Source: a virus (lineage: Duplodnaviria; Caudoviricetes). From it: a DNA stretch of 40,070 nt. Positions 32,361 through 40,070 of the stretch are shown here, one piece after another; positions within the stretch are counted from its first letter, which is position 1; each line of letters begins with the position of its first letter. Position numbers and translations under genes: made by a program. Under the pieces are notes generated by a model. It did not search any database, was not told where the DNA came from, and was given only the letters and a program-made list of their open reading frames with translations. The stretch is taken from positions 1 through 40,070 of the IMG/VR virus record IMGVR_UViG_3300037047_000284. One strand, given 5' to 3'.

Positions 32361-34456
32361 ACACCTTCGCCCTCATCCCCCTGGCCCACATCGTTGCCAG
32401 CCTCACCAACCCGCGCAAGACGTTCAACCAAGAGCGCCTGGCCGAGCTGGCCGAGAGCATCCGCGCCAGTGGGGTGCACCAGCCCGTGTTGCTGCGCCCG
32501 CTGCCCGGCTCGCGCGTGGCCGACACCGCGCACCACGACCCCCGCCCACAGTACGAGCTGGTGAGCGGCGAGCGCCGCGTGCGCGCCAGCGCCATGGCCG
32601 AACAGGACAGCGTGCCCGCCATGATCCGCGCCCTGAGCGACGACCAGGTGCTCGACATCCAGCTGGTGGAGAACCTGCAGCGCGAAGACCTCACGCCGCT
32701 GGAAGAGGCCGAAGGCTACGACCACCTGATGCACGCCCACGAGCCTGCCCTGAGCGCCGACGACGTGGCCCAGCGCATCGGCAAGAGCCGCGCCTACGTC
32801 TACGCCCGCCTGAAGCTGCTCAACCTGTGCCACGAAGGCCGAGAAGCCCTGCGCCTGGGCCAGATCGACGCCAGCCTCGCGCTGCTCATCGCCCGCATCC
32901 CCAGCACCAAGGTGCAGGCCGACGCGCTGGGCAACGTGTTCAACCCCATGACCGGCGCCGCCATGAGCGTGCGCGAGGCCAGCGCGCTGATCCAGCGCCA
33001 GTACATGCTGCGCCTGCCAGAGGCCCGCTTCAACCCCTCCGACGCCGCCCTCGTGCCCAGCGCCGGCAGCTGCAGCCACTGCAGCAAGCGCACCGGCGCC
33101 GACCCCGACATCTTTGCCGACGTCAAGGGCGCCGACGTCTGCACAGATCCGCCCTGCTTCCGCACCAAGACCGAAGCCCACCAGGCGCAGCAACTGCAGG
33201 CCGCAGCCGACAGCGGCGCCACCGTCATCACAGGGCGCGAGGCGCAGGAACTCATGCCCCTGCAGACCGACACCCGCGTCGAGGGCTACCTGCGCCTGGA
33301 CGACGCCCGCGACACCCCCACCGGCGGCCCCAAGACCATCCGCGAACTCGTGGGCCACCTCATGGAGCCCGCCGGCATCAAGCCCACCCTGATCGAGAAC
33401 CCCAACAGCCCGGCGCATGAGCTCATTGCGCTGGTGACGCGGGCCGAGGCTGGGCGGTTGTTCGACCTGGCGAAGGCCGCCAGCGGCAAGGGCAAAGGCA
33501 AGGCCGCTGGCGGGCAGGCAGGGACCGCCACAGCGCCGCAGGAGGTGGACGAAGGCAAGGCCGCCGCCGAAGCGTTTGAACGCACCTGGCGCCAGCGCGT
33601 GGTGGCTGCGGCGTGGGAAAACATCCGAGACCGCGAAGAAGGCATGTACGCCCTGCCCATGGGCGCCATCACTCACCTTGCCAAAGTCCAGGCCGACGCG
33701 CTGGGCGTGGCCCAGGCCCGTGCGCTGTGCGACCTGCTGCAGCTCGGCTCCGTCGCGCCCAAGGAAGCCATCGACGAATGGGCCATCAGCCAGAAAGACC
33801 CCGAGCGGGCCCTCGCGCTGCTGCTCATGGCCGAAGCCGCCAGCCACCTGCCCGGCCACCCCATGGCCGACGAAAGCCGCACGCTGCTTACCACCATCGC
33901 CGCCGACCGTGGCGTGGGTGTGGACACCGGCGCCATCATCGAGCAGGCCGGCGAAGAGGCCAAGGCCCAGCTCAAGGCGAAGCAAGACGCCCGCGAAGCC
34001 GAACAAAAATCACCCGATCTACCCCTTTCCTCTGCTGCGCAAGCGAGTGGGGTGCGGGGGGGTAAAGGCAAGGCCAAAAAACCCGGTTCCGCTGCGCTGG
34101 CGCACCGTGTGCCAAAAACCACCGAGCAGGAAGCAATTCAAGGCATCGCTGCCGCGATGCAAGGCCTAGGAGAGGAAGGGGCCGACGCCGGCCCCTCGGG
34201 GTCCGATCCAGACGGCGCAAGCGCCGTGGGGCCAGGTGGTCGGGCGACTTCGCCCGACGCTAGCGCCTCGGAGCTGGTTCCGGGCGCACGTGTCCGGTTT
34301 GTCGGCGTTCACATGACGGGCCAGCTCGGCCGCCTGAAAGAGGCCGCAGGGCTTGAAGGCAAGTGGCTGGTGAACGTCGACGGCCTCACCAGCGACTACG
34401 TGTTCGAACCGCACGAGTTCCAAGTCGTGGCCGAGGAAGGCGAAGCAGCATGCTGA
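32357..34456 (+). CDS. ParB/RepB/Spo0J-family protein with long C-terminal extension
   Basis: NPRKTF...LAESI...GVHQP, YELVSGERRVRA, ENLQREDL, HTH; Cys cluster CSHC...CTDPPC. Confidence 0.88.
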   Translation: MNTFALIPLAHIVASLTNPRKTFNQERLAELAESIRASGVHQPVLLRPLPGSRVADTAHHDPRPQYELVSGERRVRASAMAEQDSVPAMIRALSDDQVLDIQLVENLQREDLTPLEEAEGYDHLMHAHEPALSADDVAQRIGKSRAYVYARLKLLNLCHEGREALRLGQIDASLALLIARIPSTKVQADALGNVFNPMTGAAMSVREASALIQRQYMLRLPEARFNPSDAALVPSAGSCSHCSKRTGADPDIFADVKGADVCTDPPCFRTKTEAHQAQQLQAAADSGATVITGREAQELMPLQTDTRVEGYLRLDDARDTPTGGPKTIRELVGHLMEPAGIKPTLIENPNSPAHELIALVTRAEAGRLFDLAKAASGKGKGKAAGGQAGTATAPQEVDEGKAAAEAFERTWRQRVVAAAWENIRDREEGMYALPMGAITHLAKVQADALGVAQARALCDLLQLGSVAPKEAIDEWAISQKDPERALALLLMAEAASHLPGHPMADESRTLLTTIAADRGVGVDTGAIIEQAGEEAKAQLKAKQDAREAEQKSPDLPLSSAAQASGVRGGKGKAKKPGSAALAHRVPKTTEQEAIQGIAAAMQGLGEEGADAGPSGSDPDGASAVGPGGRATSPDASASELVPGARVRFVGVHMTGQLGRLKEAAGLEGKWLVNVDGLTSDYVFEPHEFQVVAEEGEAAC

Positions 34457-36441
34457 ACCCTCAATTCATCCTTCCCATCGCCAACGAGCTGGTGGTCGAC
34501 CTCTTTGCAGGCGGTGGCGGCGCATCCACCGGCATCGAGCAGGCCATCGGCCGGCATGTCGACATCGCCATCAACCACGACCCCGAGGCGATCAGCCTGC
34601 ACACCGCGAACCACCCGCAAACGCGCCACTTTGTGAGCGACGTTTTTGAGGTTGACCCCGTGGTGGTCACAGACGGCCAGCCGGTGGGCCTGCTCTGGGC
34701 ATCGCCCGACTGCAAACACTTCAGCAAGGCGAAGGGCGGCAAGCCCGTGAGCAAGAAGATCCGCTCGCTGGCCTGGGTGGTGGTCAAGTGGACCGCCGCC
34801 GTCAAGCCGCGCGTCATCTGCCTGGAGAACGTCGAAGAGTTCCAGACCTGGGGACCGCTGGGCCCTGACAACCGCCCGTGCCCCAACCGCAAGGGCCAGA
34901 CCTTCCAGCGCTGGAAGCGGCAACTGGAGCGCATGGGCTACGTGGTGGAGCACCGAGAGCTGCGCGCCTGCGATTACGGCGCCCCCACCATCCGCAAGCG
35001 CCTGTTTCTCGTGGCCCGGCGTGATGGCATGCCCATCGTCTGGCCCGAAGCCACCCACGGAGCGCCCGACAGCCTGCCCGTGAAGCAGAAGAAGCTCAAG
35101 CCCTGGCGCACCGCCGCCGAGTGCATCGACTGGAGCGTGCCCGCGCCCAGCATCTTCGAGCGCAGCAAGCCGCTGGCCGACGCCACGTGCCGGCGAATCG
35201 CAAAGGGAATCATGCGGTACGTGGTGAACGCGGCCGATCCGTTCATAGTTCAAGGAGACAGCCGTGGCATACAGCATCAGCAGGGATCCCACACTCACGC
35301 CTCACCAAAAAGCAAAGCTGATTGGGGAAAAACAAGCAGCGGAGCACAAGCTCATGATGGAGTGGGCTGCGGAGTTCGAGCCCTATTTTCAAGCGATACA
35401 GGCCGGCATCCCCATGAGCCAGACACCCTGGGCCCCCAAAGGCCAACCGATGCGGCTTTGGAGGGATTTCCCACCGCCACCACTTCAACAAAAACCGACC
35501 GGGGTGCTTGCCACGATCACGATCCGGCAGCAAGCGCCCCAGCAAATAGCGTTGAGCTTTTAGCACCCACCCTGGTGCAGACCGGCTACGGCGAACGCGA
35601 AGGCCAGGCGCCCCGCGCGCTCGACCTCGGCAAGCCGCTGGGCACCGTCGTCGCCGGGCAGAAGCATGCGCTGGTGTCCGCCTTCCTCGCCAAGCACTAC
35701 ACCGGCGTGGTCGGCAGCGATCTGGCCGCCCCCATGGGCACCGCCACCACGGTGGACCACCACAGCCTGGTGGCCGCGCACCTGGTGCACCTCGGGCACG
35801 GCGAGGGCAAAGACGGCACCAAGCGTTTCAGCCACGGCATCCGCGACGTCACCCAGCCGCTCAACACCGTGACAGCGCAAGGGATGCCCGCCGGCGTCGT
35901 CACGGCGCACATGGTCACCATCGACAACAACAGCAGCCAGGGCGGCCACACCGCCGCAACTGCGCCGCTCAAGACCACCGTCACCGAAAACCGCCATGCG
36001 CTGGTCACCAGCCACATGCTCAAGCTGCGCGGCGACAACGTGGGCAGCGCGGCCGCCGAACCGCTGCACACCATCAGCGCCCAGGGAACCCACCACGGCG
36101 AGGTGCGCGCCTTCCTGATCAAGTATTACGGCACCGACCAAGACCCCGCCCTGCGCGAACCGCTGCACACCGTCACCACCAAAGACCGCTTCGGCCTCGT
36201 GACCATCAAAGGCCAGGACTACGCCATCGTGGACATCGGGCTGCGCATGCTCACCCCGCGCGAGCTGTACCGTGCCCAGGGCTTCCCCGAGAGCTACGCC
36301 ATTGACAAAGGCGCCGACGGCCACCCCCTCACCAAGACCGCGCAAGTGCGCATGTGCGGCAACAGCGTGTGCCCGCCGCTGGCTCGGGCCCTGGTGGCCG
36401 CGAACTACGTCGAAGCGCAGGATCTGAGGGCCGCAGCATGA
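34450..36441 (+). CDS. C5 cytosine DNA methyltransferase (orphan)
   Basis: DLFAGGGG, SPDC, LENV, R.RLF, motifs IX-X RMLTPREL...GNSV; repeated PLxTVT units. Confidence 0.92.
   Translation: MLNPQFILPIANELVVDLFAGGGGASTGIEQAIGRHVDIAINHDPEAISLHTANHPQTRHFVSDVFEVDPVVVTDGQPVGLLWASPDCKHFSKAKGGKPVSKKIRSLAWVVVKWTAAVKPRVICLENVEEFQTWGPLGPDNRPCPNRKGQTFQRWKRQLERMGYVVEHRELRACDYGAPTIRKRLFLVARRDGMPIVWPEATHGAPDSLPVKQKKLKPWRTAAECIDWSVPAPSIFERSKPLADATCRRIAKGIMRYVVNAADPFIVQGDSRGIQHQQGSHTHASPKSKADWGKTSSGAQAHDGVGCGVRALFSSDTGRHPHEPDTLGPQRPTDAALEGFPTATTSTKTDRGACHDHDPAASAPANSVELLAPTLVQTGYGEREGQAPRALDLGKPLGTVVAGQKHALVSAFLAKHYTGVVGSDLAAPMGTATTVDHHSLVAAHLVHLGHGEGKDGTKRFSHGIRDVTQPLNTVTAQGMPAGVVTAHMVTIDNNSSQGGHTAATAPLKTTVTENRHALVTSHMLKLRGDNVGSAAAEPLHTISAQGTHHGEVRAFLIKYYGTDQDPALREPLHTVTTKDRFGLVTIKGQDYAIVDIGLRMLTPRELYRAQGFPESYAIDKGADGHPLTKTAQVRMCGNSVCPPLARALVAANYVEAQDLRAAA
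35264..35563 (+). CDS. Nested out-of-frame 99-aa gene inside the methyltransferase
   Basis: RBS AAGGAG before GTG; ORF coincides with a lower-GC insertion in the MTase variable region. Confidence 0.6.
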   Translation: MAYSISRDPTLTPHQKAKLIGEKQAAEHKLMMEWAAEFEPYFQAIQAGIPMSQTPWAPKGQPMRLWRDFPPPPLQQKPTGVLATITIRQQAPQQIALSF

Positions 36442-37002: not shown

Positions 37003-37257
37003 ATGATCGGCACCCAACCCACCGGCGCCGTGCCCGGCGTCGTGATCTCAGCCGTGGCCCACGAAGGCCTGACCGTCACGGTCGACGGCAAGCCCGCGCG
37101 GCTGGCCATCGTGCTGGACGACGGCACCGTCGTGGCCGCCGGCACCGACGTGGCCAGAGAAGCCCAGGCCGTGGCCGTGAACCTCTACCGGGGGTTCCTG
37201 AAGGGGAACGGGCATCTGCGCGTGCTGAGCCCGTCTATTCCGACGGGGAAGCATTGA
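37003..37257 (+). CDS. Hypothetical protein (84 aa); stop codon lies in the core of the first attC
   Basis: RBS AGGAG; TGA within ATTGAAC. Confidence 0.7.
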   Translation: MIGTQPTGAVPGVVISAVAHEGLTVTVDGKPARLAIVLDDGTVVAAGTDVAREAQAVAVNLYRGFLKGNGHLRVLSPSIPTGKH

Positions 37258-37311
37258 ACACAGAGCGCAGCGGACCGCCGTAGGCGGTCCGACTGGCGCG
37301 CCGAGTTGAAC
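37253..37311 (-). other. attC site A (59 bp)
   Basis: Plus strand: ATTGAAC-ACAGA-GCGCAG-CGGACCGCC-GTA-GGCGGTCCG-[A]-CTG[G]CGC-GCCGA-GTTGAAC; on the minus strand R'' = GTTCAAC fits RYYYAAC. Confidence 0.88.
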
Positions 37312-37333
37312 AGCACCACACCGGAGAGAAACG

Positions 37334-37804
37334 ATGGACGTTGAACAAAACATGATTGCATTTGAAACAGCGATGCGATGGAACGGCTTTAAAAGCCCGA
37401 CGCGAAGCTCGACCGGCGACGGATACACCTACGCCAGGGACGCCGACAGATTCAGAGGCTGGGAATTGCATCGCCAATCTCAGGAACTGGAAATTGAGTA
37501 CCTGCAAGCCATTGAAGCCGCTGCGCGCAACCTGGTGAAGGTCAAAGGACACACGATGAATGAGACGACGCAGCCCGCCGTGGCGGGTACGGTTGAACCG
37601 ACAGTTAGGAGCTCACCCGCGCCGACGCGGACGCCGCACGGCTTTTCATTTGGTGCGGCCGATGTGTCGGCCAATGCCAGCGACGAACGCGGGAACGTGT
37701 GGCTTGGCATCAAGGGCAAGCGCGCGAAGCTGACCGTGCATGTGACGCCGAGCGGACTGCTGCGCGTGTGGATGAACGGCATGCAAGTGCTGACGACAAA
37801 GTGA
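37334..37804 (+). CDS. Cassette ORF, apparent fusion of a truncated cassette-1 gene and the cassette-2 gene (internal start 37556)
   Basis: RBS GGAG at 5' end; internal RBS AAAGGA plus ATG 37556; reads through half attC B. Confidence 0.65.
   Translation: MDVEQNMIAFETAMRWNGFKSPTRSSTGDGYTYARDADRFRGWELHRQSQELEIEYLQAIEAAARNLVKVKGHTMNETTQPAVAGTVEPTVRSSPAPTRTPHGFSFGAADVSANASDERGNVWLGIKGKRAKLTVHVTPSGLLRVWMNGMQVLTTK
37574..37610 (-). other. Half attC site B (one arm missing)
   Basis: CCCGCC-GT-GGCGGG mini-hairpin then CGGTT[G]AAC-CGACA-GTTAGGA; no complementary AAC-N5-GTTAACCG arm upstream. Confidence 0.65.
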
Positions 37805-37805
37805 C

Positions 37806-37856
37806 ACCCAGCACCACCGATGACCGGCGCTAGTCCGGTCGATTTAAGAGTTGGGC
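37806..37856 (-). other. attC site C (51 bp; AGC in place of AAC)
   Basis: ACCCAGC-ACCACC-GAT-GACCGG-CGCTAGT-CCGGTC-[G]-ATT-TAAGA-GTTGGGC. Confidence 0.78.
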
Positions 37857-37877
37857 GAAGGCCCGGAGAGGATAAAC

Positions 37878-38108
37878 ATGATTCACCCAAAGAACACATG
37901 CAGTGAGTGCATGTATTCAGCCACAAGAGGCGGAAGCGAAAAACTTGAGTGCCGCCGGTATGCGCCTCGGCCGGAGTTCATTTTCGCGGAAAAGGAACTG
38001 CACCTGTTGGCGCCTCGCTTTCCAGTCGTTACGCCAACCGACTGGTGTGGGGAATTCTGGCAGCAGCCCAACACAGAGCTAAGCCGCAAAGGAGGCGCTG
38101 ATGACTGA
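37878..38108 (+). CDS. Cassette-3 ORF, small four-Cys metal-binding protein
   Basis: CSEC...C...WCGEF; C-terminus PNTELSRKGGADD is encoded by attC D. Confidence 0.75.
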   Translation: MIHPKNTCSECMYSATRGGSEKLECRRYAPRPEFIFAEKELHLLAPRFPVVTPTDWCGEFWQQPNTELSRKGGADD

Positions 38109-38166
38109 CCGAAACACGACGGCTCCGCCCGCCGACGAATGTCGGCGCTTGAGCGGCAAGTTGGGG
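38066..38166 (-). other. attC site D (101 bp) containing an RBS, a start and a stop codon in its loop
   Basis: GCCCAAC-ACAGA-GCT-AAGC...GCTT-[G]-AGC-GGCAA-GTTGGGG; internal AAAGGAGG...ATG and GCCGAC-GAAT-GTCGGC hairpin. Confidence 0.88.
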
Positions 38167-38310
38167 CACAAAGCGAGGCCAGAAGACCATGAATGGCTTA
38201 CGGAACTGCGCCAGGACAACGACATGCTTCGATGGGCGCTGCGTGCACTGCTGAACAACCCAGCAGACGCCGAGACGCGGCGCCTCTCGTTTCTCGCCCT
38301 GGGGGAGTGA
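38101..38310 (+). CDS. Cassette-4 ORF 1, hypothetical (69 aa)
   Basis: RBS AAGGAGG and ATG inside attC D. Confidence 0.7.
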   Translation: MTDRNTTAPPADECRRLSGKLGHKARPEDHEWLTELRQDNDMLRWALRALLNNPADAETRRLSFLALGE

Positions 38311-38591
38311 TGGACCGTTTTGAAATTGGCCGGAGCTACGGCGTGATGCACCTTGATGACCGTCAAGAAACAGTCACGATTGCTGGACGAGATATTGCAT
38401 CCGTCACGTTCGAGGATGGGCGCAGGGCTCGCGTGTTGCATGGCCTGGCGCCGGATGGCAGCGATGAAGAGGTGTTGCGCATTGACGAGCGCGGCGCCTT
38501 TGCAGCAGGTGGCGTTGTGAGGGCGTGCCATCTGCGCCCCAACACCGAAGGCCAGCGGGCCGGAACGGGTCCGGCTGGGCCGCAGAGTTGA
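38310..38591 (+). CDS. Cassette-4 ORF 2, hypothetical (93 aa)
   Basis: TGATG coupling, RBS GGGGAG; reads through attC E and stops in GTTGAAC. Confidence 0.7.
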   Translation: MDRFEIGRSYGVMHLDDRQETVTIAGRDIASVTFEDGRRARVLHGLAPDGSDEEVLRIDERGAFAAGGVVRACHLRPNTEGQRAGTGPAGPQS

Positions 38592-38593
38592 AC
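38537..38593 (-). other. attC site E (57 bp)
   Basis: CCCCAAC-ACCGAA-GGC-CAGC-GGGCC-GGAACG-GGTCC-[G]-GCTG-[G]-GCC-GCAGA-GTTGAAC. Confidence 0.88.
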
Positions 38594-38613: not shown

Positions 38614-38769
38614 ATGGCCTGCCCGAAATGCGGCTGCAAATTGCACTACCAGTACGACACCGGCTGGGATGGCGAGCAGCAACCCGAGAACCTGGAACGC
38701 TGCGCCTCCTGCGGCGAGGTGTTCGACATTGAAGACTCAACCGAGGAAGAAGATGAGCCAACAAGCTGA
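38614..38769 (+). CDS. Cassette-5 ORF 1, 51-aa zinc-ribbon protein (not in ORF track)
   Basis: MACPKCGCK...RCASCGEVFDIEDSTEEEDEPTS; RBS GGAG. Confidence 0.75.
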   Translation: MACPKCGCKLHYQYDTGWDGEQQPENLERCASCGEVFDIEDSTEEEDEPTS

Positions 38770-38968
38770 AACGCTGGCAGACGCTCTGCCGAAGGAAATG
38801 GCCCGCGTTCGCACCGTGCTGGGCTACTACAAGGAAATCGGCCCCGCTGGCGCGATTGGCGCCATGTTCATCGAGCAGGACTTGCAAGCCGCTGACCGTG
38901 CCGTCATGAGCGGCGACGTGGTTGCGATGCTTCAGGCCCTGGAGGCGCTTCGCGGCGTCACCGGCTGA
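38753..38968 (+). CDS. Cassette-5 ORF 2, hypothetical (71 aa)
   Basis: RBS GAGGA; MSQQAETLADALPKEMARVR...GPAGAIGA...GDVVAML. Confidence 0.75.
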   Translation: MSQQAETLADALPKEMARVRTVLGYYKEIGPAGAIGAMFIEQDLQAADRAVMSGDVVAMLQALEALRGVTG

Positions 38969-38969
38969 T

Positions 38970-39086
38970 GTTGTTCAGCACCAATTCGGGAACAGGCCAA
39001 GTAGGATAACACCGGAGCGAAACATGCAAGTCATTGATTCACAAGAGCAAGCAGCCATTACGCACGACGACACACCGGCGTTATGC
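38970..39086 (-). other. Putative attI region
   Basis: Cassette 5 ends at GTTGTTCAGC (38970-38979) with no attC hairpin following; adjacent to the intI 5' end. Confidence 0.6.
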
Positions 39087-40070
39087 GACAAGCCAGCCGA
39101 GCAGCCCAAAAAGTTGCAGCAGCTGGTGGCCGACGCCATCGCCGTGCGGCACTACAGCCGCCGCACCAACGAAGCCTACTGGCACTGGATCAAACGCTTT
39201 GTGATGTGGTCAGGCAAGCGCCACCCAGCCAGCATGGGGCAGATCGAGGTCGGCCAGTTCCTGACCTGGCTGGCCGCTGATCAACACGTTTCTGCCAGCA
39301 CCCAACGCCAGGCGCTGGCCGCCGTCCTGTTCCTGTACAAGCAGGTCCTGGGCGTCGACATCGGCTGGGTCGAAGGCATCGTGCGCGCCAAACAGTCGCA
39401 GCGCTTGCCCGTCGTCATGACCGTTGATGAAACCCGCGCCCTGCTCGCCCACACCAGCGGCACGCCCGGGCTCTTCCTGCGCATGCTGTACGGCACGGGC
39501 CTGCGCCTCATGGAGGGCCTGAACCTGCGCGTGAAGGATCTCGACCTTGAGCAGCGCCAGATCATCGTGCGCGCCGGCAAAGGCAACAAGGACCGCGTCA
39601 CCATGCTGCCCGAGCGCCTGGTGCGGCCACTGCGCGAACTGCTGGAAGAGCGCCGCCGCTGGCACCATGTGGACCTGTCAACGAACCACGCCAGCGTGGA
39701 CCTGCCTTTTGCCATGGCGCGCAAATACCCCAACGCGGGCAAAGAGTGGGCCTGGCAATACGTCTTCGCCACGCCCGACTACCACACCAACCCCGACACC
39801 GGCGAACAACGCCGCCACCACCTGTTCGACTGGACCATCCAGCGCCACATGAAGTCCGCGCTGCAGGCCGCCGGCATCAGCAAGCCCGCCACGCCTCACA
39901 CCCTGCGCCACTGCTTCGCGACCCACCTTCTCCAGGCCGGAACCGATATCCGCACGATTCAGGAACTGCTGGGCCACAGCGACGTGGAGACCACCATGAT
40001 TTACACCCACGTGGTGGGACAGACAGCCGGCCGCGGCGCCGTGAGCCCGCTGGATAGAATGGCCGCATGA
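39024..40070 (+). CDS. intI: Integron integrase (tyrosine recombinase, IntI family), 348 aa
   Basis: RHYSRRT..AY..WIKRF, VSASTQ.QAL, LYGTGLR, GKGNKDR, integron-specific insertion VDLPFAMARKYPNAGKEWAWQYVF, RRHH, HTLRHCFATHLL, LLGHSDV.TTMIYTHV; RBS GGAG. Confidence 0.95.
   Translation: MQVIDSQEQAAITHDDTPALCDKPAEQPKKLQQLVADAIAVRHYSRRTNEAYWHWIKRFVMWSGKRHPASMGQIEVGQFLTWLAADQHVSASTQRQALAAVLFLYKQVLGVDIGWVEGIVRAKQSQRLPVVMTVDETRALLAHTSGTPGLFLRMLYGTGLRLMEGLNLRVKDLDLEQRQIIVRAGKGNKDRVTMLPERLVRPLRELLEERRRWHHVDLSTNHASVDLPFAMARKYPNAGKEWAWQYVFATPDYHTNPDTGEQRRHHLFDWTIQRHMKSALQAAGISKPATPHTLRHCFATHLLQAGTDIRTIQELLGHSDVETTMIYTHVVGQTAGRGAVSPLDRMAA
39027..39039 (-). promoter_or_regulatory. IHF consensus site
   Basis: AATCAA-TGAC-TTG matches WATCAA-N4-TTR. 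Confidence 0.5.

Follow-up and report, generated by a model that had tools for sequence, protein, structure and literature searches.

A prophage integron with apparently inverted gene cassettes: attC hairpins as probable translation joints in a shared Pro-Asn frame

Integrons are gene-swapping devices whose usual home is in bacteria. The locus described here, the terminal gene array of a prophage, raises the question of why open reading frames should run into and out of attC recombination sites and take stop and start codons from them. A preliminary description of this DNA proposed that recombination swaps protein C-termini and re-couples translation, thereby keeping the operon free of gaps whatever the cassette order. 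We consider it fairly probable (roughly two chances in three) that the array is a prophage integron in which genes on the attC bottom strand cross the sites in a Pro-Asn frame, and in which the hairpins are likely to have been selected as translation joints.

The window, i.e. the whole stretch of DNA analyzed (40,070 nt), is a complete 40-kb provirus from IMG/VR. A serine-type integrase gene is located at 1-1626, the morphogenesis genes are on the minus strand, a repressor-like region is found at ~28 kb, and a rightward operon of early type terminates in small genes arrayed over 2 kb, followed by an integron integrase. The latter (IntI, 348 aa, 39024-40070, + strand) points the same way as the cassette genes and, with respect to attC polarity, is canonical. 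It matches TIGR02249 with 434 bits (cut-off 265) and aligns with VchIntIA (2A3V) over residues 36-346 (E-value 4e-78), including the integron-specific insertion region. The attI site of the window was called by comparison only: homology with two related loci, L001 and L002, begins at 38979, hence attI is predicted at 38973-39009 (+ strand), with the core GTTCAG|C (38978|38979) and a conserved platform. With IntI, attI and an attC array in place, the sites are parts of a complete prophage integron. Expression of both the array and intI would depend on the early operon of the phage and not on a Pc promoter. The serine-type integrase and IntI genes are on the same strand at opposite ends of the prophage and thus become adjacent in the circular phage. 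IntI matches were found in nine annotated phages, every one below 60% identity; Rctr41k, the one of them that we opened, carries mostly canonical sites downstream of its integrase.

Agreement in frame between two of two read-through genes, as in the window, is expected by chance in one case out of three, and any significance therefore comes from homologous arrays. We scanned 31 IntI loci, 378 viral pattern loci and 128 GTDB loci (full flanks being used for 80 viral pattern loci per scan) with a custom-written attC detector and a custom-written codon-model gene caller, which together under-call the cassettes of AT-rich genomes; sites were detected in 18, 149 and 26 loci, respectively. The search patterns fix G16, but neither the gene strand nor T23, and three narrow attC patterns match an estimated 520, 480 and 240 IMG/VR stretches, some of which seem to come from the genomes of isolates. 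Among coding-strand calls, 306 of 342 upstream genes were kept (closed ORF, at least 90 nt, positive coding score upstream) and 263 of 297 downstream calls passed. In the window, sites A, D and E (see below) score 24, 20.5 and 21 by this detector, while shuffled sequences yielded, per 200 kb, three sites at ≥20 and none at ≥22. An Rfam search returned no meaningful match.

The orientation of the cassettes is revealed by the extrahelical bases. According to the accessible text of Nivina et al. 2016, G16 and T23/24 of the bottom strand sit on the arm opposite the cleaved AAC (PMC5027507). In the window G16 is found on the + strand 3' arm of all five sites (A, B, C, D, E) and T23 or T24 in four of them; among viral sites, T23 is present in 208 of 263. 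The bottom strand carries 294 of the genes located 3' of viral sites and the top strand 18 (70 uncalled), as opposed to 8 and 24 (23 uncalled) for the same pattern in GTDB genomes (p=4e-19); the chromosomal integron of Silanimonas (L203) is canonical by the same detector. In a canonical cassette a top-strand gene precedes the cassette's own attC and is expressed from Pc, while all genes of the window array are on the bottom strand. Folding energy as a strand test was not discriminating (bottom above top in 150 of the 263 viral sites). The position of the extrahelical bases puts the genes on the attC bottom strand, so that the IntI cut, AA|C, is predicted inside an Asn codon, at the 5' edge of each hairpin, and the hairpin would move with the downstream gene; the cassette unit would then consist of hairpin body, gene and RYYYAA. 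Judged by these sequence features, the cassette genes are inverted and intI is canonical relative to attC, a polarity that is absent from the preliminary description. Four sites from GTDB genomes (L186, L245, L261, L262) show the inverted, phage-type layout; they may belong to prophages in those genomes.

The distal end of the array is marked by a phage gene for an 84-aa protein (37003-37257, + strand), 100% identical in L002. Its TGA (37255-37257) lies inside site A, as had been noted, though 1 nt ahead of the predicted crossover, and so it is the gene's own stop; a TTG overlapping it opens a 9-codon ORF in the AAC frame. Site A (59 nt, 37253-37311, + strand) exhibits the bottom-strand features on the + strand (G16, plus A20; predicted crossover 37258|37259), and in L002 the same left flank is joined to a different attC body at the AA|C of site A. 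The 156-aa ORF that follows (37334-37804, + strand) is an in-frame fusion of a truncated gene with an 83-codon internal-start cassette gene (ATG 37556, SD 37544-37549). Its C-terminal half has six stand-alone homologues of 80-84 aa, whose most variable part is the first 16-19 residues, encoded by the attC arm, and its N-terminal half has a homologue in L028 that ends in a C-terminus of its own; we infer from the sequence that the fusion was formed by a deletion of DNA lying between the first gene and the second gene's SD. Site B (37556-37610, + strand; G16, T23) comprises only the loop and 3' arm and encodes the N-terminus of the fused second gene. The peptide AVAGTVEPTVR earlier ascribed to it is present, but the 5' arm is lost and we rejected B as an intact attC in favor of a 3' half-site.

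Site C (51 nt, 37806-37856, + strand; G16, T23) has its core AAC changed to AGC, and a 10-codon ORF with a GTG start (37801-37833) runs across it in the standard frame. AG|C replaces AA|C both here (37806-37812) and in attI (38973-38979), with G-T wobble pairing kept, which could represent decay or a relaxed cleavage triplet. A body similar to that of site C is present in L001 and L002. One attC body heads three different genes (window 37812-37877, L002 7619-7680, L001 7640-7683), the L002 copy also sharing the leader and SD with the window, and this suggests that hairpin-plus-leader modules may be reused in cassette creation.

The next ORF, of 76 aa (37878-38108, + strand), has no stop of its own: it ends in PNTELSRKGGADD followed by a TGA (38106-38108), its last 11 residues and the stop being supplied by site D. 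As the preliminary description had read it, this TGA lies in the loop of D, where it overlaps the ATG of the following gene (38101) by 8 nt downstream of an AGGAGG (38090-38095). Site D (101 nt, 38066-38166, + strand; predicted crossover 38071|38072) is of the internal-start type, with SD, ATG and AAC-frame stop all in the hairpin; the probability of its recombinogenic fold is 0.0006, compared to a median of 0.30. The 69-aa gene (38101-38310, + strand) starts in the D loop, reads through the 3' arm of D and overlaps by TGATG with a 93-aa gene (38310-38591, + strand). The latter, again as described before, runs through site E (57 nt, 38537-38593, + strand; G16, T24; predicted crossover 38542|38543), which supplies a 15-residue tail and the stop; it reads PNTEGQRAGTGPAGPQS followed by a stop within GTTGAAC (the R'' box of E), and the next ATG follows 22 nt later. 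The attI-proximal cassette encodes a 51-aa CxxC protein (38614-38769) and a 71-aa protein (38753-38968), both on the + strand and with homologues in other viral arrays. A leader, ACACCGGAG, recurs at 37320, 38600 and 39011, ahead of the first gene downstream of site A, the first downstream of site E, and intI. Since B is half deleted, the core of C is mutated and D folds poorly, the window array is partly decayed. Nevertheless, three of its cassettes pair 7/7 with their own R box, one of them using a G-T wobble.

All five intact junctions of the window are crossed in the AAC frame: read-through genes do so at D and E, and short ORFs at A (TTG start), C (GTG start) and attI (ATG start). The attI ORF, 13 codons long and in the standard frame, opens at the TGATG overlap (38968); its stop codon, at 39007-39009, is separated from intI by 14 nt. 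At D, E and attI, the crossover lies within an ORF whose stop is contributed by the partner. Among the 306 upstream genes of the survey, 122 stop at the core TAA and 91 just before the site, i.e. 213 (~70%) have their own stop, and 93 read through. The latter are distributed among the frames as 88:3:2, or 72:3:2 (72 of 77 in the AAC frame) when one member per protein cluster is counted; the common CCC AAC (Pro-Asn) frame remarked upon in the two run-through ORFs of the window is thus general in IMG/VR arrays. Genes arriving in the AAC frame read through in 88 of 103 cases, those arriving in the -1 frame in 2 of 68.

The 263 downstream genes comprise 84 with a start codon within the hairpin, 72 of which have an SD, and 179 that begin beyond it. 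When loop starts were clustered (n=73), an AAC-frame stop was found within -10 to +14 nt of the ATG in 60 clusters, compared to 12 and 13 for the other frames. Exact ATGA overlaps occur in 34 clusters, and in-frame fusions at loop starts number 0 for the AAC frame and 20 and 6 for the others. The gene frame relative to AAC is strongly biased for loop starts (49:15:9, p=5e-9) and uniform for external starts (62:54:63); AAC-to-ATG distances range from 5 to 56 nt, yet they concentrate at 2 mod 3. In 43 of 53 cases the stop on the loop start is kept even though the present upstream gene stops by itself, which fits a pre-installed joint. The frame rule and the loop coupling are well supported by these sequence comparisons, and it is only because the cassettes are inverted that the shared frame, the change of tails and the stop at the loop start all work.

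According to the mechanism we propose, ribosomes would leave the 3' end of a cassette in a single standard frame, whether the gene reads through or translation restarts at a codon that overlaps the gene's own stop, and the incoming frame would be closed by the hairpin of the next cassette or by attI. Where the loop holds an SD and an ATG, the closing stop would overlap that ATG, and in about a third of cassettes the next gene may be started in this way. Restart codons in the AAC frame overlap the self-stop in 48 of 56 genes (background 328/817) and lie no more than 20 nt from a core-TAA stop in 45 of 106 (background 115/817). Among TGA stops only, the excess holds when TTG is counted (p=0.004) and is not significant for ATG and GTG alone (37/53 vs 279/466, p=0.18).

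An alternative is that the inverted cassettes are real, and the frame bias is a by-product of the AAC frame being the one most reliably closed, with selection acting against run-on and fusion proteins and not for coupling. The AAC frame stays open for >150 nt in only 9 of 355 viral sites (66 and 58 for the other frames) and meets a stop within 35 of 42 canonical sites. Two-thirds of cassettes lack coupling, and only 79 of 263 would couple to an upstream gene that reads through. Those with external starts mostly have their own SD (148/179) and rarely a stop within 14 nt (12/179), and their median gap is 61 nt; medians of the actual gaps in the four pairings of cassette types are -4, 43, 60 and 92 nt. 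We nonetheless regard the by-product explanation as unlikely, because the 2-mod-3 spacing and the ATGA overlap of loop starts, as well as the restart codons at cassette ends, would be left unexplained by it. Re-coupling of translation is supported by stop placement in internal-start cassettes. Universal coupling, or a one-step relay, for external starts had to be rejected (9/150 direct and 16/150 relayed, not above other frames); 122 of the 150 have neither and keep a gap, which contradicts the idea of an operon free of gaps in any cassette order. In 10 of the 150 (L016, L085, L146, L332, L333 and five others) an SD-led mini-ORF extends from attC to the start of the main gene.

The exchange of C-termini can be followed in homologues. 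L043/L073 and L080/L368 are examples of same-gene pairs whose tails diverge after Pro-Asn, and of the four homologues of the 93-aa protein three match it up to Pro-Asn and continue with other tails of 1-9 residues, the fourth being devoid of Pro-Asn (all four are predicted proteins, some on short contigs). Hence, that C-termini are swapped stands insofar as tails change exactly after Pro-Asn. The tails, if translated, are short (median 9 aa) and in 11 of 31 multi-member gene families tailed and untailed members are mixed, again as the by-product explanation would have it; they look dispensable and are probably neutral, and tail swapping looks like a tolerated by-product.

A further explanation, which we consider quite improbable, is that hairpins are now swapped chiefly through homologous recombination of the phage, or through an IntI able to use either strand, and that the sites are boundary sequences with no fixed crossover. 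Complementarity between a cassette end and the cassette's own R'' is perfect in 147 of 188 adjacent viral pairs, compared to 61 for the site as it stands, a test that reveals the cassette units and not which junction is cut. When the upstream gene is the same (13 pairs), body similarity is 0.33-0.66, i.e. at random level (random 95th percentile 0.65); when the downstream gene is the same, the body is similar in 10 of 18 pairs and unrelated in 8 (p=0.019, the pairs being non-independent); in one pair the downstream genes are 100% identical and the bodies differ. These 8 pairs, some of them breaking at G^TT, speak for homologous recombination, as do the presence of intI within the fetched 2.5 kb at only 3 of 149 pattern loci and the partial decay of the window sites; some pairs may also reflect a crossover at the opposite junction, or cassettes that were created more than once. 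On the other hand, identity breaks at, or a few bases from, AA|C in same-upstream pairs and between the window and L002, three same-downstream pairs keep bodies 90-100% identical up to AA|C, and the stems stay complementary, which argues against this explanation. Three pairs of identical or nearly identical genes with different attC bodies (L025/L379, L300/L461, L040/L100) break at G^TT, and thus N-termini are swappable, too. In read run X1, which may represent the source sample, a joint of 37261 to 37839 was seen; its inserted letters match an L002-type body, and we therefore rejected it as an excision of the window array and assigned it to a co-occurring relative. RNA run X2 yielded two contigs of 151 nt with a depth below 3 and without strand information.

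Finally, the idea that ordinary host cassettes were inserted in reverse or have decayed, the ORFs on their + strand being spurious, is hardly credible and largely refuted by the strand statistics: the 76-aa ORF entering D does score weakly (-0.5 to 3.2), with no homologue found in our search, but the minus strand of the array has no long ORF with a strong coding score (best ~9), homologues are known for five cassette ORFs, and the polarity is common to hundreds of viral sites.

The attI motif was found in 27 of 29 regions (taken from 31 loci, three of which were not given; several regions are near-duplicates), and in 24 of these 27 the frame is closed after exactly 10 codons, although the fixed stop may reflect an IntI-binding repeat instead. 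Among 18 intI starts scored, those located at least 29 nt past the attI stop have an SD (6/6), and those closer mostly lack it (9/12). We speculate, tentatively, that temperate phages maintain an integron economy of their own with the Asn frame as the standard, in which every cassette end launches a ribosome and every attC or attI closes its frame; loop-start hairpins would be opened by it, and intI, often without an SD, would be translated only by coupling through attI. If this were true, the order of cassettes would tune the expression of neighbors and the level of the integrase itself.

Several elements of this arrangement have been published: integrons and CALINs of phages, borrowed stops and short ORFs in attI1 and attC, and engineered coding attC sites. 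Qi et al. 2023 reported integrons and CALINs in temperate and virulent phages, with phage attC recombined by IntI1 (PMC9892861). The window shares with them IntI, attC arrays and cassettes, but their complete integrons are captured host integrons, and their main text reports no bottom-strand genes, shared frame or attC-internal starts (PMC9892861). ORF-11, ORF-17 and ORF-18 of attI1 and short ORFs inside attC (Hanau-Bercot; Jacquier 2009) are treated in the accessible part of a review (PMC8876359). The ORF-11 type shares with our sites an ORF over the crossover, a stop from the incoming partner and coupled translation, and short attC ORFs carry ribosomes through the hairpin, as we propose here; the known cases as given there are canonical and site-specific, while in the phage arrays the polarity is reversed, cargo genes themselves cross, one frame is kept over hundreds of cassettes, and intI ends the chain.

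By the accessible text on canonical attC, the R and L boxes, G16, T23/24, purine-rich spacers and bottom-strand cut at AA|C are common to both kinds of sites, but there strand selectivity sets the genes on the top strand behind Pc, and here they are on the bottom strand, facing intI (PMC5027507). The synthetic attC sites of Nivina et al. 2020, as far as their accessible text goes, are protein-coding and recombinogenic at once by engineering (PMC7439510); those of the window are natural and would supply termini rather than linkers. In class 1 arrays untranslated stretches reduce downstream expression, attC sites being minor determinants in canonical arrays (PMC11511950, accessible part), which provides a rationale for coupling. 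Our literature search, with most subscription papers outside its coverage, found no description of inverted, frame-locked phage cassettes.

The integron is real, in a non-canonical, phage-specific format. Integron models assume that bottom-strand selectivity points genes away from attI. A large phage cassette pool would reverse this orientation, with recombination sites doubling as translation joints; it would offer a rule for reshuffling modular early operons without broken genes, supply natural examples of coding attC sites and account for the junk termini of many hypothetical phage proteins. Such a cassette, if caught by a host integron, would likely be silent, which would keep phage and host pools separated. 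These genes could be missed by pipelines in which ORFs are called on the top strand, or in which those overlapping attC by >50 nt are discarded (a practice given in the accessible text of PMC7370490). Two viral loci (L013, 9138-10839, and L539, 6456-9916) contain canonical top-strand attC arrays downstream of a co-directional integrase, unlike the layout studied here. Elsewhere in the window, a DNA cytosine methyltransferase-like gene (34450-36441) contains an in-frame stretch of lower GC content (~35230-35570) resembling an insertion.
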